60,156 nt of DNA. It comes from a virus. This document shows, piece after piece, positions 30,525 through 60,156 of this stretch (positions are counted from its first letter, which is position 1; each line of letters begins with the position of its first letter). Made by a program: the position numbers and the translations under genes. The stretch spans positions 1 through 60,156 of IMG/VR virus record IMGVR_UViG_3300010398_000003; one strand, written 5' to 3'. The notes under the pieces were generated by a model. The model did no database searches and was not told the DNA's origin. It saw only the letters and a program-made list of their open reading frames with translations.

Positions 30525-30744
30525 GAGCGGCAACGCACGGGAAAGCCCCCAGGTCCGGGACGCCGGGCAGCCTGGTCGAGGCCGGTACCGGTGACACCAG
30601 CTCGGAGCCCACGTCGACGTCCGTGGGGTGTGTCCGGTCCACCACCGCGAGGCGGGTACCGCGTAGCGGATGCGCATGGGGGGACTGGCTTCGATGCCAC
30701 GGACATGCGGAGCGGGACAGCCCTAGCAGAGGCCCCCGCGCCAT

Positions 30745-30804
30745 GGGGCGGTAGCCGGCTGGGACCGGTACTCCGGAGTCCAGGTTCGAATCCTGGCCGC
30801 CCCT
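30745..30804 (+). ncRNA. 60-nt minimal tRNA-like element d
   Basis: Perfect 7-bp acceptor GGGGCGG / CCGCCCC. Perfect T arm CCAGG-TTCGAAT-CCTGG. D-like arm CCGG-CTGGGA-CCGG. The anticodon arm is replaced by the 10-nt palindrome ACTCCGGAGT. No encoded CCA. Confidence 0.5.
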
Positions 30805-31133
30805 CGTAGGACCGGCAGGCCGCGCTTCGGCGCGCGAGGTCTGGGGCTGGGGAATCTGCTCACCCATCCTCGGTAAGAACGCGGCGCGATACGGGCGAGG
30901 CCGCGCACGTCCGGCTAGGGATGAGGCCGGACGCGGAGAGGTCGAGCGGAGCGTCCTGCTGCTCGACCTCTCCACCCGGAGTTCCCGGGCTTGCCCGGGG
31001 GGACTTGCCGGCTGGACCAGATGCAACCGGTGGCCGGCGGACAGCGGCCCGTGATCTACAGGCTGCCGGCCGGCCGGTACCCCAGCGCGGGCATGGGTAT
31101 CGGCCTCGGACATCCACCTGGAGAGGAGTGGAG

Positions 31134-36232: not shown

Positions 36233-36387
36233 TCGCCTGGATCGTGATGCTGGTGGCCGGCGTGGTGATGTTCGCTGTCGGCCTGCCCGGCCTGCTGCTG
36301 ACCCGGGAGGCCAAGATGCTGGGCCGCTGGTTCCTGGTCATCGTCGGGGGCATCCTGCTGGCCGCGCTCGCGCTTGCTATGCTGTAG
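36229..36387 (+). CDS. 52-aa membrane peptide
   Basis: ATG 36229 overlaps the upstream stop (ATGA). Two hydrophobic helices. Its TAG stop lies inside dyad element F. Confidence 0.45.
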   Translation: MIAWIVMLVAGVVMFAVGLPGLLLTREAKMLGRWFLVIVGGILLAALALAML

Positions 36388-36403
36388 ATCATAGCTCGAC
36401 AGG
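36381..36403 (+). promoter_or_regulatory. 23-bp dyad element F
   Basis: GCTGTAGATCATAGCTCGACAGG, preceded by CTAT as in elements B and C. It lies 12 nt upstream of ATG 36416 and runs into the GGAGAGGAGAGG RBS. Confidence 0.55.
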
Positions 36404-40895: not shown

Positions 40896-40984
40896 ATCTT
40901 GACCGAGGAGTGATCCTGGTGCTGGCCTGCGTGGTGCTGATCGGGCTGGCTGGTCTCACGGTGGTACTGGCTAGCATCCTGTAG
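40892..40984 (+). CDS. 30-aa hydrophobic peptide
   Basis: GTG 40892 overlaps the upstream stop. Sequence: VNLDRGVILVLACVVLIGLAGLTVVLASIL. Its TAG stop lies inside dyad element G. Confidence 0.35.
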   Translation: MNLDRGVILVLACVVLIGLAGLTVVLASIL

Positions 40985-41000
40985 AGGGTGCCTTGACAGG
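40978..41000 (+). promoter_or_regulatory. 23-bp dyad element G
   Basis: CCTGTAGAGGGTGCCTTGACAGG, 73 nt upstream of ATG 41074 and about 335 nt upstream of terL. Confidence 0.5.
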
Positions 41001-45377: not shown

Positions 45378-46267
45378 CGCAGCCCCAGACGCAGCAACTC
45401 CCGGCCCAGCCTCAGGAGCATCCGGTCGCGGCCACCGTCACCACCGCCGTGGCGCTCGACGCGATCCGGCGCGGCCTGCCCGACCCGTTCCTGCCACTGC
45501 GATGGGCCCGGCTCGCTAGCGTCGTGCGGGCGGAACGGCGTGTGCTCGGCCAGTACCGCGCCGCGATCGCCGACTGGACGCCGGCCGTGGCCCGGCGTGT
45601 CGTCCAGCATGGTGCCATCGATCCGCATGCCGTCCGGTTCGCCGCCCGGGGATTCGAGACCGCCGCCCGGCCGATCGTAGAGATCGAGCTGCGCGAGGTG
45701 TTCGAGACTGCCTTTCGCGAGGCCAGCGAGGCCGACTGGACGCCGGACGCTGACGCCTACCTGAAGCGGTACCTGGACGGTGCCTGGAACCGGCTGCGCG
45801 CCACCCCTGACCGCGTCTACAGCCTGATCACGCGCGAGGTGGCAACCGCCAGCCGCAACGGAGACGACATGGACACTCTGGCCGCCAAGATCGATGGCTT
45901 GTTCGCCGAGCACGACGTACCTACCTGGACGAACCGGGGGCTCACCGTGGCCCGCACCGAGGCCATCTCCGCGCACAACGCCGGCAACTTCGCCTCCTAC
46001 GTGGCCATGGCGAAGCAGGACGGCGGCGCCTGGGACAAGGTCTGGCTCGCCACCGAAGACGAGCGGACGCGGCCCACGCACGTGCGCGCCGACCTCCAGC
46101 GGGTGCCACTGCACGCCCCGTTCACCGTCGGCGGATTCCCCGGCATGTTCCCCGGCGACCCGACGCTACCCGCCCGGGAAGTGATCAACTGCCGGTGCGC
46201 GCCGCTCGCGGTCCGGGCCGGCGAGAAGATCGACCTGTCGCACCGCCAGTTCAAGGAGGCCGCGTGA
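45374..46267 (+). CDS. MuF-like (SPP1 gp7 family) head morphogenesis protein
   Basis: GTG 45374 overlaps the portal stop. GLTVARTEAISAHNAGNF...ATEDERTRPTHVRADLQRVPL...VINCRCAP is the Phage_Mu_F signature. Confidence 0.85.
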   Translation: MTQPQTQQLPAQPQEHPVAATVTTAVALDAIRRGLPDPFLPLRWARLASVVRAERRVLGQYRAAIADWTPAVARRVVQHGAIDPHAVRFAARGFETAARPIVEIELREVFETAFREASEADWTPDADAYLKRYLDGAWNRLRATPDRVYSLITREVATASRNGDDMDTLAAKIDGLFAEHDVPTWTNRGLTVARTEAISAHNAGNFASYVAMAKQDGGAWDKVWLATEDERTRPTHVRADLQRVPLHAPFTVGGFPGMFPGDPTLPAREVINCRCAPLAVRAGEKIDLSHRQFKEAA

Positions 46268-49200
46268 CCGCGTCGCTTGACCTCTACGCGCTCACCGCGC
46301 ACACGCCGGAGGGGTCGCGGGTGGTACTCGACCTGTACGCGGTCGGGGCGCAGGCCGGCGCGCTGCTCGCTGCCACCGTCCCCGTCGTCCAGCTGGACGA
46401 GACCGACCTGTACGGGCTCGACGTCGACAACTGGCTGTACGGGCTCGTCCACTTCGAGCACCAGGGCTGCGAGACCGGTGAGTACTGCCGTAACCCCCTG
46501 CATCCGGGTCCCTGCAAGGGCTGGAAGCACATGCTGCACAGCGTGGCGCCCGGCGCGTACCACGCCTACGAGCAGCAGAGGGTCGCGAAGCTGAACGAGG
46601 CGCGCCAGGCTCGGATAGCGGAGCTGAAGGCCGCCGGCAAGGCGGTCCCGAAGCATCTGCTGAAGCCGATCACCTACCAGCAGGTGCCCACCGCGCCGGC
46701 CGGGATCCCGTTCAAGCCACCCACTCCGAAGGAAGCCGAGGCGGCCCTCCCGACTACCGCGAAGGAGATCGCCCAGAAGATCGCGATGAAGCATGCTGAC
46801 ATCGCAGCCGCCCAGGCCAAGGCGAAGAAGGCGCTCCCCGGCCAGGGCGCGGCGGGATTCGCCACTCCGAAGGATGTCGATACCTACCTGCACGACTTCG
46901 AAGCGGACCCCAACCTCGCGGCGATGCCGGCGCTGAGCAAGGCCGTGTACAGCAAAAAGCTAGCCCAGATTGTCGATGACCCCAAGGCCACGCCCGAGCA
47001 GGTGGCGAAGGCCAAAGCGATCCTGGAGAAGATGGGCGCACCGAAGGCTGCTCCGCCTGTCGGGTCGTCGGCCAGCAAGGCCGCGAAGCTTGCAGCCGGT
47101 CAGGCCGGCAGCGTGATGATGCATAATGCCAAGCTCGGGCCGCCTGACAAGCCGATCATCCAGGCCGCCCTGGAGGCGCTGCACGATCACTCGAAGACGC
47201 CGGCCGCGCGCCTGGCCGCGTATGGCAGCCTGGAGCCGAAGCACGTTCAGGCCCTACCGCCGGACGTGGCCGAGGGGATCAGGAAGGATCTTGAGCACCT
47301 GGCGGGTGGTGGGTCCCACCTGGGCGGTGCGTCTATCGGGGCTAAGGCGGCCGATATCCACGGCAAGCTGTTCCCGCCGACCGCCGGGCCGGCCGGGAAG
47401 GTGTCGGGACCGCTCGCGCATCCGGACATGATGGCTGTGTCTGACCTGGCCAAGATGCCTAACGTCAGCCCCGCCCAGTTGGCGAAGGCGTTGGAGAAGC
47501 CTGGGGTGTCGAAGACGGAGCTGGATAAGCTACCGAATCCCACCAAGTTCAAGATCATGGATGCCATCCAGGCGGCGTACCAGAAGGAGCCGGCAGGTAC
47601 ATCCGATGGCTCGACCCTGGCATATATGCACGCGAAGCTGTTCGGGGAGCTGCCGCCGGCCAAGCTGCCTGCTCAGCGGGTGCAGTCCTCGGTCTCTGGT
47701 GGTGAGCCACACCCGGACATGGCGCATGCGCTGGAGATGTTGGCGGATTACCCGTCCCTCACCAAGGGGATCAATGCCCTAGATAAGACCACTATCACGA
47801 AGGCCGAGTATGCCAAGCTGGCCCCCGAGGATCAGCAGCTGATCAAGGATTTCCTGGCTGAGCACATCGGTGATGCGCCGGCCAGCGTCGATCACCTCGC
47901 CTACAAGCTGGGTATCGATAAGCTTGACTTGATCACGCCGACGGGCGAGAAGCCCAAGGTGGGCGCGGCCCAGGCCGCTCTGGCGGCGATCGACGCTGGT
48001 AAGCCGATGCTATCCAAGATCAAGAAGATCACGCCAGCTGAGTACGAGGCCCTTTCGGGAGCCGACCAGAAGAAGATCCACGACGTGCTGAAGGAGGAAC
48101 ACGACGCGGGGCACCCGAAGGTCGCCGCCGAGATTGCGGCCGGGCTGGGCCCGAAGGCGGTCATGAACCACACGCTGGCCGTGACCGGGTACACGCCGAC
48201 GAAGCGGGCGGCCCCCGGTGAGCCACACCCCGCGCTCCTCGACGCCCTGTTGTCGCTGAAGTCGAACAGTTCCAAGTCGATGGCGCTCAGCCACCTGGAC
48301 GACCCAGGCGTGACGGCGGCGCAGTTCGATGCGCTGCCGGAGGATGACCGTCAGCAGATCATGGACTTCCTCCACGAGGCAGCCCAGGCTAAGGGGCCGG
48401 CGACCAAGGCGAAGGCGAAGACTGTCGCGGCGAAGCTCGGCATCTCGTTGGCCGGCGAGGAGCCGGTACACGAGCGACCGTCGTCAACCAAGGGCGCGGC
48501 CAAGGTGGGTGGCGACGAGCTACTCCCCGGTTCGCCGGCGCATGTGATAGCCGCCCACGCTCTGGCCACCGGACTGACCTACGGCACCGCAACGAAGAAG
48601 CTGGCCGCCTACGGCAAGCTGTCCGCCGAGGAGTTCCACTCCCTGCCCGAGAACGCCCAGAAGGCCATCGTCTCCGACCTGAAGCAGGCCCATGACAAGT
48701 TCCTGGACCCGAAGAAGAAGAACCAGGTGCTGAACCTGCTGGAGAAGCTGAAGACCTCCGAGGCGATCCTGGAGACCCCGTCCGGTGGCGTCACCCCGCA
48801 GGGGAAGATGATCGCCAAGGCGCACGCGGCGATCCTGCCGCTCCTCGGCAACATGGCCGCACCGGTCACTCAGCATGAGCTGGAGCAGAACTACAGCAGT
48901 CCCGGGGCCAGTCTGCCTGACGAGGCGATGGCCCTCGCCAACGCCTGGTACGCCCATCACGTCCTCGATGGCGGCGTCGGTACCGCGCTCAGCCCGGACG
49001 ATCACGCCAAGGTGCTCCAGAAGGCCGAGGACGAGATCCTGCACATGCTCCAGACGGGCACGACGAAGCCGCCCAGCGACGGCGTCCTGGAGAACGCCGA
49101 CATCGCCGACAAGAACCTGCACGGCGCCAATAAGGCGGCCATGAAGGCGTCCCTCCTGAAGCAGGCGGCGAACAAGCAGACTGGGGCCGGCGGTAGCAGC

Positions 49201-50238
49201 CACGGGGGCGGCACTGCCGCGAAGGTCGAGGAGGCGGCGAAGAGCGCCGGGGTGCCCAAGGCTGTCAAGGACGAGGTGCTGGGCGCATTCAAGATGCACA
49301 CCCAGGGTGCCCAGCTGAAGGACCCGCCCGAGCAGGCGTACCAGGCGCTGCTGAACGTGGCGGCGGCGGCCAGTAAGAAGCCGGGCTGGCCCGACCTGTC
49401 GCTGCGCCAGATCATGCAGATCATCGACGAGCAGCACGCCAAGAACCTGGGCGTCACGAATCAGGGCCTGCTCGAACAGAAGATGGTCACCTGGCTCGGC
49501 ACTGCCGAGGGCAAAGCGGCGGCTGCCAACATGAAGCCGGACGCTGCGACGGTCAAGAAGCTGACCGGCGGCGTCGAGCTGCCCAAGGGCGTCAAGCTGA
49601 AGGCCGGCCAGAAGGTTCAGAACGTTGGCGGTCCCGGCGGGTACAAGAAGACCGACGGGCCGTTCCATGGCTACACCTCGGACCAGGCCATCGCCGAGCG
49701 CGACGCCTACCAGGCGCAGACCGGTCAGAAGTGGACCAAGGCTCAGCACGACGCCCTGTATTCCTACACGTACGCATCCGGCTCGATGAACAACTACCTG
49801 CGCAACGAGGCCGGCGCAGACACCTCGACCAAACAGAAGATTATCGATGCCCAGTCGGCGATGCAGCCGCTCCAGCACGACCATCTGCTCGGGCGCGGCA
49901 CCGGGTGGAGCGCGGTGCCGCCCGAGTTCCGGGGCTGGCCCGAAGCGCAGGGAATGGTCGGTAAGACCATCTCCGACCCGGCGTTCCTGTCCACGTCGGT
50001 AACTGGATCGCATCACGGCTTTTCTGGCCACGTGGTGTGGATCATCGAAGCGCCCGCCGGCACGATGGGCGCGTTCGTGGATGATTTCAGCAAGTTCCAT
50101 GGAGAGGCGGAGATGCTGCTCGCCGCCGGGACCCAGCTGAAGATCCTGGGTGTCGAGCAGTACGGCGATGGCATCCGCGTCCGGGCGCGCGTCGTATCTG
50201 GCTCGAAGACGGCGATCTCGACGGGGAAGAAGATATGA
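46264..50238 (+). CDS. giant virion-module protein with C-terminal R-S-ExE ADP-ribosyltransferase domain
   Basis: GTG 46264 overlaps the MuF stop (GTGA). 1,324 aa. ART triad: LLGRG (Arg codon 49894-49896), FLSTS (49990-49998), GEAEM (50104-50112). The ART domain spans roughly 49672-50199. There are six degenerate internal repeats. Confidence 0.85.
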   Translation: MTASLDLYALTAHTPEGSRVVLDLYAVGAQAGALLAATVPVVQLDETDLYGLDVDNWLYGLVHFEHQGCETGEYCRNPLHPGPCKGWKHMLHSVAPGAYHAYEQQRVAKLNEARQARIAELKAAGKAVPKHLLKPITYQQVPTAPAGIPFKPPTPKEAEAALPTTAKEIAQKIAMKHADIAAAQAKAKKALPGQGAAGFATPKDVDTYLHDFEADPNLAAMPALSKAVYSKKLAQIVDDPKATPEQVAKAKAILEKMGAPKAAPPVGSSASKAAKLAAGQAGSVMMHNAKLGPPDKPIIQAALEALHDHSKTPAARLAAYGSLEPKHVQALPPDVAEGIRKDLEHLAGGGSHLGGASIGAKAADIHGKLFPPTAGPAGKVSGPLAHPDMMAVSDLAKMPNVSPAQLAKALEKPGVSKTELDKLPNPTKFKIMDAIQAAYQKEPAGTSDGSTLAYMHAKLFGELPPAKLPAQRVQSSVSGGEPHPDMAHALEMLADYPSLTKGINALDKTTITKAEYAKLAPEDQQLIKDFLAEHIGDAPASVDHLAYKLGIDKLDLITPTGEKPKVGAAQAALAAIDAGKPMLSKIKKITPAEYEALSGADQKKIHDVLKEEHDAGHPKVAAEIAAGLGPKAVMNHTLAVTGYTPTKRAAPGEPHPALLDALLSLKSNSSKSMALSHLDDPGVTAAQFDALPEDDRQQIMDFLHEAAQAKGPATKAKAKTVAAKLGISLAGEEPVHERPSSTKGAAKVGGDELLPGSPAHVIAAHALATGLTYGTATKKLAAYGKLSAEEFHSLPENAQKAIVSDLKQAHDKFLDPKKKNQVLNLLEKLKTSEAILETPSGGVTPQGKMIAKAHAAILPLLGNMAAPVTQHELEQNYSSPGASLPDEAMALANAWYAHHVLDGGVGTALSPDDHAKVLQKAEDEILHMLQTGTTKPPSDGVLENADIADKNLHGANKAAMKASLLKQAANKQTGAGGSSHGGGTAAKVEEAAKSAGVPKAVKDEVLGAFKMHTQGAQLKDPPEQAYQALLNVAAAASKKPGWPDLSLRQIMQIIDEQHAKNLGVTNQGLLEQKMVTWLGTAEGKAAAANMKPDAATVKKLTGGVELPKGVKLKAGQKVQNVGGPGGYKKTDGPFHGYTSDQAIAERDAYQAQTGQKWTKAQHDALYSYTYASGSMNNYLRNEAGADTSTKQKIIDAQSAMQPLQHDHLLGRGTGWSAVPPEFRGWPEAQGMVGKTISDPAFLSTSVTGSHHGFSGHVVWIIEAPAGTMGAFVDDFSKFHGEAEMLLAAGTQLKILGVEQYGDGIRVRARVVSGSKTAISTGKKI
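47140..48702 (+). repeat. six tandem degenerate protein repeats (84-104 aa units) inside the giant gene
   Basis: Each unit has (G)EPHPxxxxALxxL followed by (S/T)xxE(F/Y)xxLPxxxxxxIxxxLxxxH. Examples: TPAARLAAYGSLEPKHVQALPPDVAEGIRKDLEH, KKLAAYGKLSAEEFHSLPENAQKAIVSDLKQAH, ITKAEYAKLAPEDQQLIKDFLAEH, VTAAQFDALPEDDRQQIMDFLHE. Confidence 0.7.
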
Positions 50239-50414
50239 CCGATCAGCCGATGGGGACGCCGGAGAGCCCGGAGCCGCTCGACGAACCGCGCTTCCAGGTG
50301 GTGGACGACGTGCCGGACGCCGAGGAAGATCAGGGCATGACCGACCGGGAGGTCCAGGAGTTCCTGGACGCGCCCTGGTCGCAGCACCAGGCGAATGAGG
50401 GGACCGGGCCATGA
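50235..50414 (+). CDS. 59-aa acidic protein
   Basis: ATG 50235 overlaps the upstream stop, and its own stop overlaps ATG 50411 (ATGA at both ends). Sequence begins MTDQPMGTPESPEPLDEPRFQVVDDVPDAEEDQG. Below the ORF-track cut-off. Confidence 0.5.
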   Translation: MTDQPMGTPESPEPLDEPRFQVVDDVPDAEEDQGMTDREVQEFLDAPWSQHQANEGTGP

Positions 50415-52633
50415 CCGCACCGTGTACCGACTGCGACCAGCCGGCGGACGACTTCGTGGCGGTCACCGCTGACGACGAGGACCAGGTGGACGAGAACGTG
50501 GATCCGCGCGGTACCAAGGTCCGCGTGTTCGGCCCGATGCTCATCGCCCCGTACGGGAAGAAGACCGGCGACCGGCGGCGCTTCGCCGCGCAGTCCCTCA
50601 CCAACCGGGACACCCCGCTCGCGGTGAAGTGGCAGCGCGCTGACGAAAAGGGGCACTCCACCAGTGTCGTCGTGGCCGCGATCGACGAGATCGAGCACCG
50701 TGACGACGGTGTATACGGCTCCGGAATCATCTTCGATCCGGACCCCGACCAGCTGCCCCGCCTCGCCGAGGACGTGGCCGAGTTCAACCTCCTGGCCTCC
50801 CAGGGCGTCCTGGGCCCGTCGGTGGACCTGGACGCGATGGAGTTCCGCGCGCTGCCGCCCGAGGGCGACGAGCATGCGGGCGAACTAGCGGCCGGCGAGG
50901 AGCGTCCGGAGATCGAGGTCACCTCGGGTCGGATCTCCGCCGTCACCGCCGTGGTCATCCCGGCCTTCGCCGAGGTGGACCGGTTCGCGATCCGCGAGGA
51001 GGATGCGGGCGAGTACGCGGCCCGCAAGGAGGCGGCGTACTCCGCCCTCACGGCGGCCGTGCGGGCGACCGGCTGGACCGATATGCCCTTGGCCGCGCCC
51101 GGTACCGCGTGGGACGCGGAGGCCGCCCAGCAGCGGATCAAGTCGTGGGCCGGTGGCGACATGGGCAAGTATGCCCAGGCGTTCCTCTGGAGCGGCGAGC
51201 CGGCGCAAAACCTGACCTCGTACAAGTTCCCCCTCGCCGACGTGATCGGTGGCCAGCTCAAGCTGGTCCCGAAGGCCGTCACCGCCGCGTCCGGTGTGTT
51301 GGCCGGTGCGATGGGTGGCACGAGCCTGCCCATGGCCGACCAGGCACGCATGCACGGCGTCCTCGTCGCACTGAAGTCACGCTTCGACCCGGATCAGGAC
51401 GGCGACGACGACCGGGACGACCTGAGCGAGAACGGCGAGGGCGCGCACGGGCTCGATGCGACCACCTTCACCGCGCTGGTGGATGAGCTGGGGCCGGAGC
51501 TGGACGGCGAGGCGGCCACCTTCGGCGCGCGGTTCGACGCGATCGTAGCGAAGCTACGTGGACGCAAGGGGATCGCGGACCCGGCAGCCGTCGCCGCCTC
51601 CATCGGCCGGGCGAAGTATGGCAAGAAGGGCATGGCCCGGCTGCGGGCCGGCGTCAGCCCGAGCAAGGTGAAGCCGCTCGCGGCCAGTGGCCGGCTGACC
51701 GCGCTGATCGCAGCGGCCGTGACCGGTGACTGGGCCGGCGTGGAGGAGGACGACGTGCGCGAGCTGGCCAGCCTGACCGCGAGTGGCTACGTGCCGGCGG
51801 CCGTGGACTCCACCTGGTTCGACAACCCGAAGCTGGACCGGCCCACTCCGCTCCGGATCACCGAGGACGGCCGGGTGTTTGGGCATGTCGCCGACTGGAA
51901 GACCTGCCACACGGCCTTCGCCGGCTGCGTGCGCGCCCCGAAGTCCAAGAGCAACTATGCGTACTTCCACGTGGGCGAGACGCTCACCGACAAAGGCCCC
52001 CTCGCAGTCGGGAAGCTGACCATCGGTGGTGGCCATGCAGACGGCCAGTTCGGGTACCGTGCGGCGGCAGCCCACTACGACGACGTGGCGACTGCCGTCG
52101 CCGAGGTGCGGGCCGGCGAGGACAAGCACGGCATCTGGGTGGCCGGCCGGCTCCTGCCCGGTGTGCAGGGTACCGAGCGGGAGGCCGAGCTGCGTCGCTC
52201 GCCGCTGTCCGGTGACTGGCGTCCCATCGGTGGCCACCTGGAGATGATCGCCGCGCTGGGGGTCAACTCGCCGGGCTTCCCGATCCCGCGCGTGGCCTTG
52301 GCCGCCTCCGGCGCGGTCGATCCGGAGGCGGAAGGCCAGGTGGTCTCGCTCGTCGCGGCCGGCGTCCTGGCACCCGCCCGGCCGGCGATGACATTCGACC
52401 TGGAGCAGGTACAGACGGTGGCCCGCGCGGCGGCCCAGGCTGTCCTGGACGAGCAGGCGGCGGCCGGCCGGCGCGCCAAGGCCCAGGGACTGTTCGCTGT
52501 GATGGACGACACCGACGACCAGCAGAACCTGGTCATGCGGCGCCGGAAGGCCAAGAAGGCGGCCATGGCCGTATCCTCGGGCGCGAAGGCGGTCGGCGCG
52601 CGGTCGGCCGGCGGCGACTACCAGGGGGGGTAG
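50411..52633 (+). CDS. prohead (capsid maturation) protease with long C-terminal extension
   Basis: 740 aa. KWQRADEKGHSTSVVVAAIDEIEHRDDGVYG, GVLGPSVDLD and ISAVTAVVIPAFAEV parallel the HK97/S78 protease His, Ser and strand motifs. A second similar block lies near AGEDKHGIWVAGRLL...LSGDWRP...VNSPGFPIPR. Confidence 0.75.
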   Translation: MTAPCTDCDQPADDFVAVTADDEDQVDENVDPRGTKVRVFGPMLIAPYGKKTGDRRRFAAQSLTNRDTPLAVKWQRADEKGHSTSVVVAAIDEIEHRDDGVYGSGIIFDPDPDQLPRLAEDVAEFNLLASQGVLGPSVDLDAMEFRALPPEGDEHAGELAAGEERPEIEVTSGRISAVTAVVIPAFAEVDRFAIREEDAGEYAARKEAAYSALTAAVRATGWTDMPLAAPGTAWDAEAAQQRIKSWAGGDMGKYAQAFLWSGEPAQNLTSYKFPLADVIGGQLKLVPKAVTAASGVLAGAMGGTSLPMADQARMHGVLVALKSRFDPDQDGDDDRDDLSENGEGAHGLDATTFTALVDELGPELDGEAATFGARFDAIVAKLRGRKGIADPAAVAASIGRAKYGKKGMARLRAGVSPSKVKPLAASGRLTALIAAAVTGDWAGVEEDDVRELASLTASGYVPAAVDSTWFDNPKLDRPTPLRITEDGRVFGHVADWKTCHTAFAGCVRAPKSKSNYAYFHVGETLTDKGPLAVGKLTIGGGHADGQFGYRAAAAHYDDVATAVAEVRAGEDKHGIWVAGRLLPGVQGTEREAELRRSPLSGDWRPIGGHLEMIAALGVNSPGFPIPRVALAASGAVDPEAEGQVVSLVAAGVLAPARPAMTFDLEQVQTVARAAAQAVLDEQAAAGRRAKAQGLFAVMDDTDDQQNLVMRRRKAKKAAMAVSSGAKAVGARSAGGDYQGG

Positions 52634-53543: not shown

Positions 53544-53577
53544 CGAGGCCCCCACCGACCTTACGGTGGGGGCCTCG
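53544..53577. terminator. bidirectional terminator between the late genes and the inverted island
   Basis: CGAGGCCCCCACCG (53544-53557) pairs perfectly with CGGTGGGGGCCTCG (53564-53577) around a 6-nt loop, followed by TCGTATTGT. Confidence 0.75.
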
Positions 53578-53585
53578 TCGTATTG

Positions 53586-53864
53586 TCAGGCGGACGCGCG
53601 GCGGCACGGTCGCGTACCGCAGTGCGCGCAGAAGCCGGTCAGGCTAGCTGGCTCTGTCAGCTCGTACATCCCATCTGGGATGTGCTCCGAGTACCGGGAC
53701 GGCGATTCACGGGGGCTTCCGTCCCGGTCAAGGTAGTAGTTCCCGCTGTGAAGGCGCAGCACGGTGATCCCACGTGCGCGGGATCGCGTCACGTCCCCGT
53801 CGATCACTGTCGCGAGCCCGGCGGCGATTCGGACTAGGCTGCCATTCGGTGGGCGGTCCTTCAC
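53586..53864 (-). CDS. hypothetical protein, last gene of the island
   Basis: GTG 53864 overlaps the glycohydrolase stop (GTGA), in frame within ORF 53586..54071. 92 aa. C-terminal CAHCGTRPC. Confidence 0.5.
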   Translation of the reverse strand: MKDRPPNGSLVRIAAGLATVIDGDVTRSRARGITVLRLHSGNYYLDRDGSPRESPSRYSEHIPDGMYELTEPASLTGFCAHCGTRPCRRASA

Positions 53865-54856
53865 GCCGTCGCCCCCTCCAGCTCCTGGCGAAACTCGATC
53901 TTGCTGTACCAGTCGGCCGGCCAGGCGGTGAAGCCGTACGCGGCGCCGGCCAGCGCGCCCGTGATCGCCGCGATCGAGTCGCTGTCGCCGCCCGTCGCGG
54001 CGGCCCGCCGGATCGCCAACACCGGGTCGCCGGGAAATAGGAGCAGGCAGGCCAGCGCGGTGGCCAGGCACTGCTCGGCCGTCCAGCCTTCACCCGTTAT
54101 CACGCACGGGTCCGCGTACCGGTCGTCCACCTGGAGCGCGGTCTCGACTGACCAGAGTGCGTCCTGGCATTCGAACCATCCCATGCGGGCCACCTGGAGC
54201 GGACGCGGGAACGCGCCCTCGCGGGTCGCCATCGCCCAGTCCTGGCACTCGCTGACCAGGTAGGGCAGCAGATCACTCAGCGAGCAGCCGGTGGCGAGGG
54301 CCCGGACCGCCTGGGCGGTCAGCTGCGCGGCGGCTACGGCCGTGGGATGCCGGTGGGTGATGACCGCCTGCATACGCGCGGCGTAGATCATGTCCATCTC
54401 GCCCCACGGCAAGAGCGCGACTGGTGCCACCCGCATGTTGGCACCGCAGCCCTTGGACAACTGGTCGCCAGCCCGGAATAGAGGGGCACCACCGGCCAGC
54501 CGGCGCAGCGAGGTCATTACGGTCATGCCCGGGTGGCGCCCGTCGTGGCCACCGTACCGGCCGTCCAGGTAGGCAAGAAACTCGGTCCGGACCGCCTCGC
54601 GGAGAAGGTACGAACGTCCCAGATCGGTCATGAGCGGCGCAGTCTGACGGGTGGCGGACGCGATGGCCTCGGCCAGGGCCAGCGTCATCTGGGTGTCGTC
54701 GGTGACCCTCCAGTCGTGAACGGCGGGTGTGGCTGGCCCGAGTTGGCCGTACCTGTGCAGGATCTCGCCGTAGCGCATGAACTCGGTCTCCGCGCCGAGC
54801 GCGTCGCCGTAGGCGGTGCCGAACAGGACACCCATCCTGGTGTTGTGGTCGATCAT
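53861..54856 (-). CDS. ADP-ribosylglycohydrolase (ARH/DraG family)
   Basis: ATG 54856 after AGGAGAGGAG. 331 aa. GTAYGDALGAETE, VTDDTQMTLALAEA and TGGDSDSIAAITGALAGAAYG are the metal-binding signature blocks of the ARH family, and all are intact. Confidence 0.9.
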   Translation of the reverse strand: MIDHNTRMGVLFGTAYGDALGAETEFMRYGEILHRYGQLGPATPAVHDWRVTDDTQMTLALAEAIASATRQTAPLMTDLGRSYLLREAVRTEFLAYLDGRYGGHDGRHPGMTVMTSLRRLAGGAPLFRAGDQLSKGCGANMRVAPVALLPWGEMDMIYAARMQAVITHRHPTAVAAAQLTAQAVRALATGCSLSDLLPYLVSECQDWAMATREGAFPRPLQVARMGWFECQDALWSVETALQVDDRYADPCVITGEGWTAEQCLATALACLLLFPGDPVLAIRRAAATGGDSDSIAAITGALAGAAYGFTAWPADWYSKIEFRQELEGATA

Positions 54857-54929
54857 CTCGGTCTCCTCTCCTGAGACTCCAGTGCGGCGCCCGGTCCACC
54901 CCTCCGGGACCGGGCGCCGCACAAGGGCG

Positions 54930-55301
54930 TCAGTGGGCGGTCAGGTTTAGCGCGGTGATCCAGCGGCCGGTGCGGGGGACCACGTAGGTAGCCACGGTCT
55001 CGGGGATGATGTGCAGCTGGATGCCCTCGGGGATCTTGATGCCCTCCACGGTCGCGGAGTCATCCGCGAAGACCTCGTAGGCGCCGAGCGCCGCGTTGCC
55101 GTTGGTGACGACACCTTCACCGCTCTCGCCCTCCCGGACGATCACGATCTGGTGCTCGTCGCCGGCCTCGTCCACCAGGGCGTCGAAGGTGTAAGGCCCC
55201 TGGCCGCCGCGCCCGTCCATGGTGAAGCGGTACCGGGCGACTGTGCCCTCGGTGTCGACGTAGGCGAAAAACCCGTGCTGGCTGTGGGTCTTGATCTCCA
55301 T
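54930..55301 (-). CDS. hypothetical protein, first gene of the ARH sub-operon
   Basis: ATG 55301 after AGGAGG, in frame within ORF 54930..55886. 123 aa, beta-type. It lies 19 nt downstream of element B. Confidence 0.6.
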   Translation of the reverse strand: MEIKTHSQHGFFAYVDTEGTVARYRFTMDGRGGQGPYTFDALVDEAGDEHQIVIVREGESGEGVVTNGNAALGAYEVFADDSATVEGIKIPEGIQLHIIPETVATYVVPRTGRWITALNLTAH

Positions 55302-55320
55302 GGTGACCTCCTGGTCGGTC

Positions 55321-55372
55321 CCTGTCGTGCGTACCTCTACAGCATAGCCCGCCTTGACGCACCCGTCAAGGC
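55321..55372 (-). promoter_or_regulatory. promoter/operator B: sigma70-like hexamers, palindrome and dyad element
   Basis: The minus strand reads TTGACG (55369-55364)-17 nt-TATGCT (55346-55341), then GCTGTAGAGGTACGCACGACAGG (55343-55321). The palindrome GCCTTGACG / CGTCAAGGC at 55351-55372 contains TTGAC-N6-GTCAA. It lies inside the 3' end of CDS 55337..55804. Confidence 0.65.
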
Positions 55373-55804
55373 GTCCCACTGGGCCCGGTACGCATCCCGC
55401 AACATCTCTGCCGTGAACCCGCCGACACGGCGTACCCGATCGTGGACCGCCTGCCGGCTGATATCCAGCACCTCGGCCACCACCTCGCGCGGAACATCCT
55501 GCTGGTAGTAGCCAATGTGCCAGGCGCATGCCCGGCCCAGCGGCGTACCCCACCAGCGGAAGTCCGGTTGGACGTGCAGTTCGGTCGCGATGTCGTGGGC
55601 GGCCTGGCGCGCCCGGGTGGCCAGCGTGGTCTCGTCGGCGTCCGGGGTATCCATGGCCAGCTCGCGCCAGTAGAAGCGGGAGACTCCGGCCACCGTCGCC
55701 TCGCACTGCTCGCCAAGGATGGCGCGGGCTCGCCGGTACAGCACCGCGATCTCGCGGGTCAGCTGCGCGTGCACGGTCCGGCCGGTGGCGGGATTCGGGA
55801 TCAC
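55337..55804 (-). CDS. HTH-containing protein (regulator candidate)
   Basis: 155 aa. REVVAEVLDISRQAVHDRVRRVGG is an HTH-like segment. The stop TAG lies inside element B. Confidence 0.55.
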   Translation of the reverse strand: MIPNPATGRTVHAQLTREIAVLYRRARAILGEQCEATVAGVSRFYWRELAMDTPDADETTLATRARQAAHDIATELHVQPDFRWWGTPLGRACAWHIGYYQQDVPREVVAEVLDISRQAVHDRVRRVGGFTAEMLRDAYRAQWDALTGASRRAML

Positions 55805-56106
55805 GGTACGTCCTTTCCGACGGTCCGGCGCTTGAGCATCGGCCGGGCCGCGTCCGCCTCGCAGGCGTTACGGACCACGTTGGCAAAGTGGGCGTTAGCG
55901 ATCAGGGATACCAGCTCGTTTTCGGCGAGCTGCGCGTGCATGTGGTACGTCTCGTAGTCCGGGGCGGCCCGTTCCGGCAATGAACGGACGCGGTGGGCTG
56001 CCCGCATGATCTCTCCGGCCGCCTGCCCCATCCGCGTTGCCAACTCCGCCAGCTGCTCGCCGAGTTGCTCGGCGCGTTGGGCCTCGATGTCGATAGCCAT
56101 GATCAT
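55801..56106 (-). CDS. hypothetical helical protein
   Basis: ATG 56106 overlaps the upstream stop (ATGA) after AGGAGAGGA, in frame within ORF 55801..56403. 101 aa. Confidence 0.55.
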   Translation of the reverse strand: MIMAIDIEAQRAEQLGEQLAELATRMGQAAGEIMRAAHRVRSLPERAAPDYETYHMHAQLAENELVSLIANAHFANVVRNACEADAARPMLKRRTVGKDVP

Positions 56107-56348
56107 TCCTCTCCTGCGCGCTGGCGGCCCACTGAGGGCCACGCCGGAGCCGCGTAACCGATAACCTGGACGAACCGCCAGCGCTCGTTCAGTTCGATGG
56201 TGATGCCGGCGCCGGGCTTGTCGCTCAGCGCTGCGCCTCCGCTGGCCTCGTCGCCGAACTTGCCGACAACGGTCACGCCGACCGGCATGTCCGGGCCGTC
56301 GAGCAGCGCGCGGGCCAACTCGTGGGTGGTCATGGGCTTGGGGTCCAT
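56103..56348 (-). CDS. hypothetical protein
   Basis: ATG 56348 after GAGGAGGCAAGGA, in frame within ORF 56103..56384. 81 aa. It lies 23 nt downstream of element C. Confidence 0.55.
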   Translation of the reverse strand: MDPKPMTTHELARALLDGPDMPVGVTVVGKFGDEASGGAALSDKPGAGITIELNERWRFVQVIGYAAPAWPSVGRQRAGEE

Positions 56349-56371
56349 CAAAATCCTTGCCTCCTCGAACG

Positions 56372-56430
56372 CCTGTCGTGTCATGCTCTACAGCATAGGC
56401 CACCTTGACGGTGATGTCAAGGTGGCCTAT
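56372..56430 (-). promoter_or_regulatory. promoter/operator C: sigma70-like hexamers, 15-bp-arm palindrome and dyad element
   Basis: The minus strand reads TTGACA (56420-56415)-17 nt-TATGCT (56397-56392), then GCTGTAGAGCATGACACGACAGG (56394-56372). A perfect palindrome ATAGGCCACCTTGAC-N6-GTCAAGGTGGCCTAT spans 56395-56430. Confidence 0.65.
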
Positions 56431-56440
56431 GCGTGGCAGG

Positions 56441-56830
56441 TCAGAAGCCGGGCGGCCGACGCCCCTGGAAACCGTGCGGTGGGGAGTGCGGATGCCAGAG
56501 CCTGATCGCCACCACCGAATGGAGGGGGATGTTGTAGTAGTGGCCCGAGTACCGCCAGTCCCGGTCGTTGCCGTGCTCGTCCTTGCCGCCGGGGATGTAC
56601 CGCGCCAGGACGATCTCCCACAGCCCGTTGAACTCGATGAGATCGATCATCTGGCCTTCGATGAAGGTATCGTCCCGGGCACGTCCGGACGGTGACCAGT
56701 GGATCCGCACGAAGTGACGGAGGTAGGTGCGCGTCGTCGCGCGTTGGGCCTCGGGGGTGGCGTAGTCGTTCATGTAGATGATGCGCTCGGGTGAACCCCG
56801 GGGGCGCCGTCCGCGCTTCTCTCCACTCAT
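56441..56830 (-). CDS. hypothetical protein (paralogue of 56827..57195)
   Basis: ATG 56830 overlaps the upstream stop (ATGA) after GGAGG. 129 aa. It shares the block RDWRYSGHYYNIPLHSVVAIRLW with the neighbour's RDRWYRGEQTVAIPLWAIKSIRRW. Confidence 0.55.
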   Translation of the reverse strand: MSGEKRGRRPRGSPERIIYMNDYATPEAQRATTRTYLRHFVRIHWSPSGRARDDTFIEGQMIDLIEFNGLWEIVLARYIPGGKDEHGNDRDWRYSGHYYNIPLHSVVAIRLWHPHSPPHGFQGRRPPGF

Positions 56831-57195
56831 ATCGGCCTCCGTGGTGGTGGTACCCGCCGCCGTGGGGGTGGCGCCGGGGGAGTCCAACGCCGGATCGACT
56901 TGATCGCCCAGAGTGGTATCGCGACGGTCTGTTCGCCCCGGTACCACCTGTCCCTGGCCTGGTACCACGGCTCGATCACGATCTCGGGCATGCCGCTACC
57001 GCGCCCCACCCACAGCACCGTGCCGTGCGTGGTCTGATCGCTGATCTCCGCGCTAGGTATCGTCCACTCGACCTGGACGCCTTTCTCCAGGAACCACTTC
57101 GCCACACGGATCCGGTCATCATCCGTGCGGCGCCGGGTCATGTCGATGAAGCCGGGGGGCGGCCGGTCCGGACGCCCCCCTTCCCGCCCGGTCAC
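56827..57195 (-). CDS. hypothetical protein (paralogue of 56441..56830)
   Basis: GTG 57195 overlaps the upstream stop (GTGA). 122 aa with a Pro/Arg-rich tail. Confidence 0.5.
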   Translation of the reverse strand: MTGREGGRPDRPPPGFIDMTRRRTDDDRIRVAKWFLEKGVQVEWTIPSAEISDQTTHGTVLWVGRGSGMPEIVIEPWYQARDRWYRGEQTVAIPLWAIKSIRRWTPPAPPPRRRVPPPRRPI

Positions 57196-57557
57196 ACCGC
57201 CCGCGTGATGAAGCTGCGCAGAAGCGTCAGCACATGCTCGATGGCGCCGAGCTGGTCGTCGATCTGCTCGGCCATGAGCGAGAGCGCCGCGCCCTGTTCG
57301 TCCAGCTTTTGGCCCACCTCGGCCAGGGCGGCGGCGATGCCGGCCCCGGTGATATGCGCGACGTGGCTCGGCAAGGTGATCTGCGCCATCTCCGCCGCAT
57401 ACCTGGTCTGCGTGCCGGCGAGCGACAGGCTACTGATCATGGGATCCTGGAGTGCATCCCGGGCCAGCAGGAATGCCGTCTTGACCTCGTTCTCAATGAA
57501 TGCGATAAGCGCCAGTACCGCAGGCTGGAAGTCGTCCAGCCCCGCGTATCCGGTCAC
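57192..57557 (-). CDS. hypothetical all-helical protein
   Basis: GTG 57557 after GGAGAGAGGGG. 121 aa, Ala/Leu/Gln-rich. Confidence 0.55.
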   Translation of the reverse strand: MTGYAGLDDFQPAVLALIAFIENEVKTAFLLARDALQDPMISSLSLAGTQTRYAAEMAQITLPSHVAHITGAGIAAALAEVGQKLDEQGAALSLMAEQIDDQLGAIEHVLTLLRSFITRAV

Positions 57558-57593
57558 GGCTACGCCCCTCTCTCCTATCGGGAATTGCGCGGA

Positions 57594-57788
57594 TCAGCGG
57601 TCGGGCATCTCGTTCGGCAGATCCTTGACGTAGCGGTCCGGGTTGCCCAGAGGGCCGCTCACGTCCTCGGGCTTGACGGGCTGGGCCTTCGCCTGCCGCT
57701 CGCGCGCCTCCTCGTTCTCCTTGACGCGGCGGGCCAGGTCGGCGTCGGACTTGGCGGTGAGGCGTGGCTGCCTGCGCCAGTTGACCAT
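57594..57788 (-). CDS. hypothetical small charged protein
   Basis: ATG 57788 after GGGAGA, in frame within ORF 57594..57851. 64 aa. First ORF after element D. Confidence 0.45.
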   Translation of the reverse strand: MVNWRRQPRLTAKSDADLARRVKENEEARERQAKAQPVKPEDVSGPLGNPDRYVKDLPNEMPDR

Positions 57789-57910
57789 GGTGATCTCCCA
57801 TTCCTGATAGAGGACTGGTGCGGGCGGGGGGCCGGTCTTGGTTGTGGGCACGGACCGATGTCCGGCACCCTGCCGGGTGCGCCCTGGCGGCAGCCTGCCC
57901 CGCCCGCTTA

Positions 57911-57933
57911 CCTGTCGAGTATACCTCTACAGG
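57911..57933 (-). promoter_or_regulatory. 23-bp dyad element D at the outer edge of the island
   Basis: The minus strand reads CCTGTAGAGGTATACTCGACAGG. A possible TGGACC-17 nt-TATACT hexamer pair overlaps it. Confidence 0.5.
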
Positions 57934-57957
57934 GAGATCGGGTCCACACAGAGATGT

Positions 57958-58097: not shown

Positions 58098-58172
58098 AGC
58101 GGCCAGCAACGTTGACGGTGCTGGCGGGAGGGCCGGCCGCGACGTGTGGAGCGAACGTGAGGACAGCTCCCC

Positions 58173-59981
58173 ATGGACGTGGCAGAGATCCAACTCCCCA
58201 CCAATCTGAGTGCCACCAACGCCGACGGCGCGTACGCGGTCACCGACGAGACCCTGGACGAGCTGTACGACACCGCCTTCGCCGCCGCCAAGCCCCTCGC
58301 GGACAAGGTCAACGCGGGCGAGGACATCCCCGACGCCGAACTGGACACGCTGACGCGCCTGTCCGCCGTCGTCACCGGGGTCGGCGAGGAGCGCACCCGG
58401 CGCACCGAGGCCGACACCGCCAGCGCCGTACGGTCCGCGAAGGCCAAGGACGCCGCCGCCCAGTTCGCCACCAAGCCGGCCGCCAAGCCGGACGGTGACG
58501 ACGAGCCCGATGGCGACGAGGGTGGCGACAAGCCGGCGGCCCGCAAGAAGGTCGGCGTGGCCGCCGTGGCCGCCTCCGCCGGCAAGGGGCCAGCCGACAA
58601 GGCGCCCGAGGTGGAAGAGGACCGGCAGCACTACGGCACGCTCGTCTCGTCTGCCGACTCGGCGAACGCGGGCGTCACCCCGGGCCAGAAGTTCAAGGAC
58701 TGGAAGCAGGTCGGCCAGGCGCTCGACGAGCAGATGGACATCCTGCGCTCGATGGCCGAGGGCGGCATGCAGGCCAGCGCGCGCCGGCACGTCCTCCAGG
58801 TCCGCCGGGAGTATCCGGCCGAGCTGCGGTTGATGCCGGGCGACAACGAGGAGGCCGCGTACCAGAAGCTGGAGCACGCGGTCAGCATGGGTCGGCTCCC
58901 GGGCGGGGCCCTGACGGCCGCTGCTGGCTGGTGCGCGCCGTCGCAGATCCTGTACGACCTGTACGAGATCGAGAACGGTACGGACGGCATGTACGACGTG
59001 CCGGAACTCCAGATCAGCAGGGGCGGCATCCAGTACACCGCCGGCCCGGACTTCTCCGCCATCTGGGGTGGTTCCTCGTCGAGCCCCGCATGGCCCCAGG
59101 GCTACTGGCACCAGACGGAGGCCCAGGTCCAGGCGGCCACGTCCAAGCCGACCATGGTCGTGCCGTGTCCGTCCTTCACGAACACGCGGCTGGAGGTCGA
59201 CGGCGTCCAGATCACCGGGGCCTTCCTCCAGGACCGGGGATACCCGGAACTGGTGGCCCGGTTCAGCCGTGGCGCCATGGTGGTGCACAACCGGCGGATG
59301 AACGCGTTCAAATTGAACGTGGTCACCGACGGCAGCACGGTGATCGACCTGACCGGCGCGAACTGGCCCGGTACCGTCGTCGAGTCCAAGGACCTGACCA
59401 CGGTGTCCCGGCTGCTGGCCGCCTTCGGCATCCAGGCGATGGACTACCGGTACCGGTACCGGATGGGCCTGACCGACCAGATCGAGGTCATCCTGCCGTA
59501 CTGGGTGGTCGAGTACGTGCGGGCCGACATCCAGCGCCGGACGTTCATGAGTCCGGACGACGCGTTCACGATCGCCGTGTCCCAGCTGACCGCCTGGTTC
59601 AACGCGCGGAACATGCGTCTCCAGCTGGTCTACGACTGGCAGGACGCGTTCAACACGCCGACCACCGCCAACCAGTGGGGTAGCGGCCGGTTCACCACCG
59701 ACACGCACACCAACGTCGGCAACCCGGCCGCGCAGATCTACACGCTGCCCACCACCGTCTACGGCCTGATGTACGCGCCGGGGACCTGGGTGGCCGGCGT
59801 CTCCGACGTAATCCGGCTCGACACCGTGTACGACGCGGCGAACCTGGCCCTCAACCAGTACGTCCAGCTGTTCACGGAAGAGGGCATCCTGATGGCGAAG
59901 CGTGGCTACGAGTCGCGCCTCCTGAAGGTCACCATCGAGCCCTCGGGCACCACCTCCGCCACCACCTCGATGACGGTGTAG
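58173..59981 (+). CDS. major capsid protein with N-terminal scaffold-like (delta) region
   Basis: 602 aa. The first 230 aa or so are charged, low-complexity and coiled (KPAAKPDGDDEPDGDEGGDKPAARKK). The C-terminal 370 aa or so carry AAAGWCAPSQILYDLYEI, PELQISRGGIQY and NQYVQLFTEEGILMAKRGYESRLLKV, which read like an HK97-fold coat protein. Confidence 0.7.
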   Translation: MDVAEIQLPTNLSATNADGAYAVTDETLDELYDTAFAAAKPLADKVNAGEDIPDAELDTLTRLSAVVTGVGEERTRRTEADTASAVRSAKAKDAAAQFATKPAAKPDGDDEPDGDEGGDKPAARKKVGVAAVAASAGKGPADKAPEVEEDRQHYGTLVSSADSANAGVTPGQKFKDWKQVGQALDEQMDILRSMAEGGMQASARRHVLQVRREYPAELRLMPGDNEEAAYQKLEHAVSMGRLPGGALTAAAGWCAPSQILYDLYEIENGTDGMYDVPELQISRGGIQYTAGPDFSAIWGGSSSSPAWPQGYWHQTEAQVQAATSKPTMVVPCPSFTNTRLEVDGVQITGAFLQDRGYPELVARFSRGAMVVHNRRMNAFKLNVVTDGSTVIDLTGANWPGTVVESKDLTTVSRLLAAFGIQAMDYRYRYRMGLTDQIEVILPYWVVEYVRADIQRRTFMSPDDAFTIAVSQLTAWFNARNMRLQLVYDWQDAFNTPTTANQWGSGRFTTDTHTNVGNPAAQIYTLPTTVYGLMYAPGTWVAGVSDVIRLDTVYDAANLALNQYVQLFTEEGILMAKRGYESRLLKVTIEPSGTTSATTSMTV

Positions 59982-60033: not shown

Positions 60034-60156
60034 GAGGAAAGATCATGGCGAGTATCCAGGAGCTGGAGAGCTTCCCTGTCCCGGTCGTCTCCGCCGCGTA
60101 CACCGCGACCGGCGACACCACCAACGCCGGCCCGGTCATCCCGTTCAAGGGCACTC
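60034..60156. repeat. terminal overlap copy 2, identical to 1..123
   Basis: An exact 123-nt repeat of the window start. It contains the RBS and the first 37 codons of CDS 12..422 (ATG at 60045), so that partial ORF is a duplicate and not a separate gene. Confidence 0.95.

Follow-up and report, generated by a model that had tools for sequence, protein, structure and literature searches.

The hydrolases ARH1, DraG and Tri1 cleave arginine-ADP-ribose, and the CIR sites of phiC31 and the stoperators of cluster A mycobacteriophages are conserved inverted-repeat operators of actinophages. We analyzed a block of ten minus-strand genes (g1, the ADP-ribosylhydrolase gene ARH, and g3 to g10) that precedes the capsid gene in IMG/VR virus record IMGVR_UViG_3300010398_000003, positions 1 to 60,156 (this whole stretch of 60,156 nucleotides is called the window below); to its left, the head operon encodes a protein that ends in an ADP-ribosyltransferase (ART) domain. 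Head-associated phage transferases are held to be packaged and injected, and ARH-type domains are rare in phages and sporadic in actinophages (PMC9503650, PMC5576092). The gene order of the window resembles that of Actinoplanes phage phiAsp2 (NC_005885), in which the genes for a portal, a MuF-like protein and the large Pas7 are followed by six leftward genes (pas8-pas13) and then by the major head protein; the two capsid proteins are 37% identical. Unlike the window, phiAsp2 has a leftward block that is non-homologous to g1-g10; no ARH was found in its record, and the locus that precedes its capsid gene gave no match to a transferase domain. The role of the phiAsp2 leftward block is not addressed in the literature open to search.

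Our preferred reading, for and against which we find the case about evenly balanced, is that the window carries a clade-wide, probably early expressed accessory block that is under the phage's common promoter/operator system and carries an eraser of the marks that the phage's own transferase makes. The parts of this reading differ in strength, and we take up in turn the conservation of the block, its predicted regulatory sites, and the proposed link between hydrolase and transferase.

The backward block in the window and its relatives

The relatives considered here are contigs labelled L0xx, to which a scan of IMG/VR with the capsid alignment added 80 loci; the backward block was scored as the minus-strand coding share of the 2.5 kb before the capsid gene. 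The clade, distant kin of phiAsp2, is made up of high-G+C phages with genomes of roughly 60 kb that were assembled from metagenomes and sequencing runs; its capsid homologs number several hundred. An earlier note on this DNA had taken the block for an island interrupting the head-morphogenesis operon, and had proposed checking whether relatives lack it at the same junction. That account does not hold: all 19 sampled relatives whose capsid is at least 45% identical over its full length devote most of the 2.5 kb ahead of the capsid gene to minus-strand coding sequence, phiAsp2 has a backward block at this junction too, and it is individual genes alone that come and go. The G+C content of the block (0.665-0.696, against about 0.685 genome-wide) is no different from that of the genome, and we rejected a foreign origin of the block on this base composition. 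On comparative grounds we conclude that the backward block is an old, clade-wide arrangement with a conserved core and fast cargo turnover, and not a recent insertion. Among phages with 37-45% capsid identity the picture is mixed (phiAsp2 and L071 have a backward arrangement, five others a forward one); g4 homologs lie on the capsid gene's strand in L064, L068-70 and L072, the cluster B mycobacteriophage Rosebush is without such a block, and in Microbacterium phage Cressida the small genes at that position run forward.

The closest relatives share gene order as well as orientation. L031, found through the closest ARH homolog, has a portal 77% identical, a 740-residue protein 70% identical and a capsid 73% identical to those of the window, arranged as portal, MuF, transferase protein, protease-like protein, a six-gene backward block with ARH beside a terminator hairpin, and capsid; L033 (capsid 69%) has a layout that matches L031. 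Common to the window, L031 and L033 is the order g10, g6 (N-terminus), g4, g3-like gene and ARH, in which the g3-like protein of L031 and L033 is 25% identical to g3 (pairwise E 7e-5) and was recovered by a family hidden Markov model (HMM). Backward blocks with other cargo are found in L034, L035/36, L037/38, L042 and L043 (16 genes in L043, at L043:3700-10050, including a NADAR gene), and phages can differ in cargo even when their capsid proteins are identical. Judged by these homologies, the block has a core made up of g4, present throughout the close relatives, of the g3 family, which many of them carry, and of g10 and g6, which the closest share.

Within the window, ten minus-strand coding frames span 53586-57851, each with a codon-position GC signature (third-position GC, or GC3, about 0.8-0.95; second-position GC, or GC2, minimum one base rightward). 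An independent gene call on Logan contig SRR5215831_18937 (60,063 bp), an assembly of run SRR5215831, lists nine of the ten, with g8 alone missed. The genes fall into three sub-operons (g10-g9-g8-g7, g6-g5-g4 and g3-ARH-g1). The count of ten genes between a terminator at 53544-53577 and the capsid gene at 58173, given in the earlier note, is thus borne out, as is its remark that only ARH and a helix-turn-helix (HTH) protein are recognizable: the eight proteins other than ARH and g4 matched nothing in Pfam, NCBIfam or PADLOC (E <= 0.01), and PHROGs matches were marginal (0.011-0.044) and confined to g4, g5 and g6. Neither megablast of the region nor tblastn with the nine small block proteins joined found a match among 50,697 phage records.

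The most widely conserved of these genes is g4 (55337-55804, minus strand; 155 residues), an HTH protein by HTH and YlxM-like matches that are weak and cover residues 94-137 only. A g4 family HMM found homologs in every close relative sampled, whatever the cargo. A word-indexed protein search with g4 returned g4 itself only, so that no deep alignment was possible; the family profile had no match among PDB sequences, and a single-sequence AlphaFold2 (AF2) model was unusable (pLDDT 46).

Promoter, palindrome and dyad modules

The block meets the head operon at a two-way terminator hairpin (53544-53577, both strands), the stability of which is -38.5 kcal/mol on the plus strand and -37.2 kcal/mol on the minus strand (z about -6.4 and -6.9; none of 200 shuffles was as stable), and strong hairpins occupy the equivalent position in L031 and L033. 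A promoter scan gave 4 sites against 0.5 expected; genome-wide, four sites combine at least five of six -35 matches with a TANNNT -10, and two of them are the block promoters. A dyad of the form CTGTAGAG-N7-CGACAGG occurs without mismatch at 55321, 56372 and 57911, one per sub-operon, and TTGAC-N6-GTCAA palindromes at 55354-55369 and 56405-56420 each hold the -35 of their module. At 56372 and 55321 the dyad comes directly after the TATGCT promoter, where the transcript probably begins. The description in the earlier note, of three dyad-headed sub-operons of which two also have TTGAC-N17-TATGCT promoters and palindromes, was therefore accurate.

All three modules are on the minus strand. Module 1 (57911-57946), in the divergent region, heads g10-g7 and combines the dyad CTGTAGAGGTATACTCGACAGG with a weak TGGACC-N17-TATACT at 57946-57918. 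Module 2 (56372-56432) heads g6-g5-g4 and comprises TTGACA-N17-TATGCT at 56420-56392, which is the best sigma70-type match of the genome, the dyad CTGTAGAGCATGACACGACAGG, and a perfect 17-bp inverted repeat (56393-56432) that covers -35 to -10 (-34.8 to -36.5 kcal/mol, z -6.5). Module 3 (55321-55376) heads g3-ARH-g1 with a palindrome, TTGACG-N17-TATGCT at 55369-55341 and the 22-bp dyad CTGTAGAGGTACGCACGACAGG. We also considered the palindromes as pure terminators, which is plausible at 56393-56432, just past the g7 stop codon, and unlikely at 55349-55371, within the last codons of g4; the module 2 hairpin could serve as terminator of the g10-g7 transcript too.

The earlier note regarded the block as autonomously regulated, a view that fails because the same promoter/dyad modules are shared with replication, recombination and packaging operons. 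Genome-wide, the dyad pattern gave 17 strand-hits against 2 expected (none of 100 shuffles gave as many), and the predicted promoter/dyad modules are a genome-wide family of about nine sites. A full copy of the palindrome, -10 and dyad module lies in the replication/recombination arm (19888-19940, minus strand), with a 22-mer (19888-19909) identical to the copy at 55321. Further dyad copies are found at 22821-22842 (minus strand), ahead of the ERF recombinase gene, and on the plus strand at 25274-25295, at 27443-27464 (ahead of DUF932), at 36382-36403, and at 40979-41000 (ahead of the packaging genes); the dyad sites sit immediately 5' of a ribosome-binding site (RBS) and start codon.

The modules are also conserved between phages. 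All three are kept in L031, in which protein identities to the window are only 50-77%, with a near-identical module 2 dyad, and they are weaker or partial in L033; module 3 orthologs lie upstream of the g3-like gene in both, and the module 1 dyad is kept in place in both. The more distant L043 (capsid 48%) has five similarly built modules, in which the dyad takes the variant form TGTATG-N7-CATACA. From phage to phage the palindromes have outer arms of varying sequence that remain complementary, which fits a hairpin or a symmetric binding site.

In the mechanism that we propose, the main RNA polymerase of the host would read the block promoters unaided, and the block would therefore probably be expressed early; a dyad-binding regulator, probably phage-encoded, would be common to the block and other non-structural genes, and g4 is a candidate for this regulator by virtue of its putative HTH.

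The capsid and tail genes, bounded on this side by a block that ends at a two-way terminator, need a start signal of their own, as the earlier note had anticipated. The divergent region before the capsid gene is 320 bp long and holds the module 1 dyad and a conserved 45-nucleotide stretch (58106-58150, plus strand) that lies just 5' of the capsid RBS and has TTGACG without a -10 hexamer. This stretch occurs once in the genome and has almost the same sequence in L031 and L033, although the proteins there are only about 70% identical; its position and conservation make it a candidate late-start signal or leader element of the capsid operon.

A proposed writer-eraser link and its rivals

The ARH gene (53861-54856, minus strand) encodes an ADP-ribosylhydrolase of 331 residues that matches PF03747 over its full length (1e-62). 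Its best PDB matches are ARH1 (8e-19), DraG (1.5e-17) and Tri1 (1.7e-13); the DraG and Tri1 models of NCBIfam were matched under their (equivalog) cut-offs, and the metal-binding Asp motifs TDDT and GGDSDS are intact in the translation. By these similarities ARH is closest to the arginine-type hydrolases ARH1/DraG/Tri1. Orthologs occupy the same position in L031 (58% identity) and L033 (61%), and L049 carries one too; an ARH query in IMG/VR gave no match.

ARH travels with g3 (54930-55301, minus strand), the 123-residue member of a small beta-rich family. The order g3-like gene then ARH is kept in the window, L031, L033 and L049, and wherever a phage has ARH, g3 lies upstream of it. A stem-loop separates the two genes in the window, L031 and L033; in the window it spans 54871-54933 (minus strand; -51.8 kcal/mol, z -4.45), and in L031 and L033 it stands in the same place with different stem sequences, four pairs being changed on both sides. 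This hairpin may act as an attenuator or stabilize the RNA. A search of 1.84 billion representative proteins gave eight matches to g3 in total, including only five convincing small homologs; the g3 family HMM is positive in L031, L033, L035/36, L042, L049, L050, L039-41 and others, and found no match in the NUDIX-type phages L037/38 and L051/52/66. An AF2 model of g3 from a six-sequence alignment (pLDDT 82) has no fold match in the PDB (best E 0.9). A g3-family protein is also encoded at L041:2216-2581, in an unrelated-looking phage contig, upstream of a terminase gene and not beside a capsid gene. Were g3 a specific inhibitor, its subtype should follow that of the transferase; in L031 and L033 it does not.

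The candidate writer is a 1,324-residue protein of the head operon (46264-50238, plus strand), the gene for which follows that of MuF with a 4-nucleotide overlap. Its ADP-ribosyltransferase domain lies at the C-terminal end (PF03496 at 1.1e-15, residues 1231-1299; also phrog_3895), and the R-S-ExE motifs are present as YLR, STS and EAE, read from the translation. The domain recurs in L031, L033, L034, L035 and L043, with R and ExE kept in all five and S-T-S or SSS in four (L034 has STA). The nearest annotated kin are 'VIP2-like ADP-ribosyltransferase toxin' domains fused to MuF/protease proteins in Arthrobacter and Microbacterium phages, and a true MuF-ART fusion protein is encoded at L041:7035-10581. 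Ahead of the transferase domain, the translation contains several copies of a motif of about 20 residues of the type 'ITKAEYAKLAPEDQQLIKDFL'.

The effector end of this protein is exchanged between relatives. There are two transferase subtypes, about 20% identical (the window's domain is at 49480-50235), the distribution of which contradicts the capsid phylogeny: the L035-type domain is found in L031 (capsid 73%), and the window type in L034 (54%). L035/36 and L037/38 have the same capsid protein, and the aligned DNA of L035 and L037 is 94-97% identical. The two pairs differ in the effector end of the giant protein, which is a transferase in one and NUDIX in the other (NUDIX is found also in L051, L052 and L066), and in a block segment with the g3-like gene and a 165-residue gene. 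The ART/NUDIX exchange is a polymorphic-toxin-like swap.

Homology and gene order together suggest that an ADP-ribose eraser is the most conserved cargo of the block and plausibly forms a pair with the transferase of the head. The transferase, a product of the head operon, would probably be packaged alongside MuF in the capsid and be injected with the DNA; ARH would remove ADP-ribose marks written by the phage's own R-S-ExE transferase, and the eraser would protect the producing cell, limit the lifetime of the marks, or neutralize the enzyme of a superinfecting relative. A more elaborate version, which we offer tentatively and consider rather doubtful as a whole, is a timed writer-eraser circuit, or split toxin-immunity system, in which the injected transferase would mark host targets at once, the backward block, transcribed from its strong promoters by host polymerase in its unmodified state, would then supply the eraser (ARH or, in cousins, NADAR) and its g3 partner under the gate of the hairpin, marks would be reset or confined, and a superinfecting enzyme would be neutralized.

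Transferase and ARH occur together in the window, L031 and L033, and ARH and a VIP2-like transferase co-occur in four Gordonia phages. NADAR, an ADP-ribose hydrolase unrelated to ARH, lies at the distal end of the block in L043, L055, L056 and L059, all four of which have the transferase. The conserved order and hairpin of the ARH cassette, the presence of NADAR at the same end, and the swaps between L035 and L037 suggest a writer-eraser link. NADAR recurs in at least six IMG/VR relatives (L055-L059 and L063).

Several observations weigh against this reading. Among loci in which the effector is visible, which are phylogenetically non-independent and make a weak tally, transferase and eraser occur together in 7, transferase alone in 6, NUDIX with an eraser in 1 (L063) and NUDIX alone in 3, and the association of eraser with effector is not statistically significant. 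About 70 Arthrobacter and Microbacterium phages have a head-fused VIP2-like transferase and no ARH. ARH and NADAR go with the same transferase subtype, and their known substrates differ (characterized NADARs cleave guanine-ADP-ribose; PMC11125620). Unlike the members of classical toxin-immunity pairs, ARH and the transferase gene lie on opposite strands and are separated by 3.6 kb and six genes. L031 and L033 have different transferase subtypes, yet their g3-like proteins share 83% identity. On the regulatory side, the dyad precedes the packaging operon (40979) and is thus not exclusive to early genes.

A serious rival, to which we nevertheless give a low probability, is that the erasers are counter-defence cargo: ARH and NADAR would undo ADP-ribosylation by host defences or toxins, unrelated to the phage transferase, and the other small proteins would serve anti-defence or host takeover. 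Most ARH phages in GenBank (those of Mycobacterium, Rhodococcus and several of Gordonia) are not among the matches for this type of transferase, NADAR stands alongside a NUDIX-type effector in L063, and the differing chemistries of ARH and NADAR next to one transferase subtype are easier to understand if each answers a different host enzyme. Rapid cargo turnover is as in an arms race, and published proposals have phage NADARs guarding phage DNA from host transferases and phage ARH-type domains targeting macromolecular conjugates (PMC11125620, PMC9503650). However, none of the ten block proteins matches PADLOC or a known anti-defence family, the three ARH phages of the closest clade all carry the transferase, and the near-isogenic L035 and L037 lose the transferase and the g3-containing block segment together. 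It is less probable still that the block is an ordinary small early-gene cluster of unrelated functions, its orientation accidental (for example, an old inversion at a recombination-tolerant junction) and ARH a mere passenger. The placement of g4 on the capsid strand in L064, L068-70 and L072, together with the absence of a block in Rosebush and the forward genes of Cressida, would fit such an accident, as would the variation in cargo between phages of identical capsid protein and the lack of statistical significance of the eraser-effector association; against it, erasers of two unrelated folds appear repeatedly at the same end of the block, the head effector of the clade is usually a transferase, and the g3-hairpin-ARH cassette is kept down to 52% capsid identity.

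The earlier note favored a moron or immunity-type module expressed independently of virion production, for example in a carrier or lysogenic state. On such a reading g4 would be the immunity repressor, with the palindromes and dyads as its operators; we consider this very improbable. The block does have its own predicted sigma70-type promoters and terminator and runs against the direction of the late genes; it contains a conserved HTH protein, and the genome-repeated dyads recall repressor operators; and one relative lies within an Actinoplanes genome contig and one within a Micromonospora contig, so that some distant relatives may be prophages. However, a Pfam and PHROGs scan of the larger proteins turned up no integrase, recombinase, CI-type repressor or partition gene, which leaves the lysogenic or carrier state unsupported. 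The contig closes as a free 60,033-bp genome, and the same modules stand at the head of the operons for the replication initiator and the ERF recombinase, operons that a prophage would silence; the G+C is indistinct from that of the genome, and g4 homologs are present in all relatives irrespective of cargo. Of the features of a moron, the block has predicted promoters and a terminator of its own, and its accessory genes change fast; it lacks both a clean absence in relatives at the same junction and a distinct composition. The immunity-type idea may hold in another form, namely as an antidote to the phage's own head-borne transferase.

Genome context and comparison with known systems

Of the remaining genes, g1, g7, g8 and g9 are, by homology, cargo seen in the window phage only, and a single homolog was found for g5. 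The block opens with g10 (57594-57851, minus strand, as are all those that follow), which encodes a small basic protein of 85 residues; residues 8-85 are 53% identical to an L031 protein, and L031 and L033 both conserve the DNA that codes for the N-terminus. Next, g9 (57192-57557; 121 residues) has a coding signature and was called independently, and has no homologs in phage records or in the L031/L033 comparisons. A probable real gene is g8 (56827-57195; 122 residues), with an in-frame GC3 of 0.85-0.90 and 4-nucleotide start/stop overlaps with g9 and g7 (GTGA, ATGA). The independently called g7 (56441-56830; 129 residues) has a coding signature; over 56441-57195, g7 and g8 are 25% identical by BLASTP (E 0.005) with a W/R-rich C-terminal pattern in common, and their sequences look like those of diverged tandem duplicates. 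For g6 (56103-56384; 81-93 residues, independently called) the start is probably at 56348 (RBS GGAGG, 81 residues) and not at the ATG within the dyad (56384), a leaderless start there having been considered and dropped; its N-terminal 44 residues are 57% identical to an L031 protein. A coding signature and an ATGA overlap mark g5 (55801-56106; 101 residues), the single homolog of which, in L033, is 46% identical. Last, g1 (53586-53864; 92 residues, independently called) has a C-terminal CxxC and a coding signature, and its start overlaps the stop codon of ARH in a GTGA; it is a window-only gene, with no homologs in the relatives compared.

The window has a G+C content of about 69% (genome-wide mean about 0.685), and bases 1-123 are an exact repeat of 60034-60156, indicating a closed, probably complete genome of 60,033 bp. 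The plus strand carries the large terminase (41335-42828), portal (43404-45377) and MuF (45374-46267, a separate open reading frame, or ORF) genes ahead of the transferase-protein gene; directly downstream of the latter come a 59-residue ORF (50235-50414), kept in relatives, and the plus-strand gene for the 740-residue protein (50411-52633), the C-terminal half of which is protease-like. Three small plus-strand genes follow, the last ending at 53511. Beyond the block, the capsid gene (58173-59981) matches phrog_777 at 2e-120, and tail genes lie 3' of it, continuing over the start of the window in the closed genome. A GH25 lysin gene lies at 14.9-15.5 kb, and the 18.4-38.5 kb arm encodes a replication initiator, ERF recombinase, DUF932 and RNase H. 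No Rfam families were found in the block or the window, and no tRNAs.

Three other stretches stood out. Between 13000 and 15000 the G+C falls to 0.61-0.63 over small minus-strand ORFs and genes preceding the GH25 lysin, the only compositionally distinct stretch of the genome. At 30013-31127 (about 1.1 kb), in the middle of the early plus-strand genes, there is no ORF with a coding signature, notable tandem repeat or Rfam match; this region could be an origin or a novel RNA. The N-terminal 150 or so residues of the capsid protein (58173-58630) are Ala/Asp/Pro-rich, could not be aligned to the capsids of phiAsp2 or Microbacterium phages, and may be a scaffold-like or delta domain.

The clade is one of soil actinobacterial phages, a poorly studied and apparently widespread group seen mostly in metagenome assemblies, and the block is a standing feature of the whole group; for annotators, a backward block beside the capsid gene is normal here and no sign of recent insertion. 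If the writer-eraser reading is true, these phages would be a natural system for reversible ADP-ribosylation in phage infection, with a capsid-delivered writer and a separately promoted eraser, and natural swaps are at hand (two ART subtypes and NUDIX; ARH, NADAR or none). Independently of that link, the promoter/palindrome/dyad modules are a compact putative regulon of about nine sites that is kept in relatives.

The block is akin both to accessory cassettes in structural regions and to transferase/hydrolase pairs. It shares with lambdoid morons its sigma70-type promoters, its terminator, its accessory content and the presence or absence of genes between relatives; unlike them, it is clade-conserved, has normal G+C, contains a regulator-like gene, uses the promoter type of the replication genes and shows no link to lysogeny. 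The dyad resembles the phiC31 CIR sites and the stoperators in being short, conserved and present in many genome copies near the starts of transcription units; its sequence is unrelated to theirs, it is fused to -35/-10 hexamers and a second palindrome, and it is a predicted site only. The polymorphic toxins of the MuF type and head-packaged ARTs including T4 Alt (Jamet et al. 2017, PMC5576092; Iyer et al. 2022, PMC9503650) also provide parallels: in the window, too, a large protein encoded right behind portal and MuF ends in a transferase, relatives carry exchanged effector ends (two ART subtypes, NUDIX), and a small ORF follows the toxin gene (50235-50414). The window differs from them in that MuF is a separate ORF with no fusion, the phage is without temperate signs, and the candidate antidote is distant, in the backward block. 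With Tre1-Tri1 of Serratia and with DraT-DraG, finally, the window has in common an R-S-ExE-type transferase and, by homology, a hydrolase of the ARH1/DraG/Tri1 kind on one genetic element. Unlike in those pairs, the window genes are non-adjacent, on opposite strands and in separate transcription units, the writer is a protein of the virion operon, and many related phages have the writer without the eraser.

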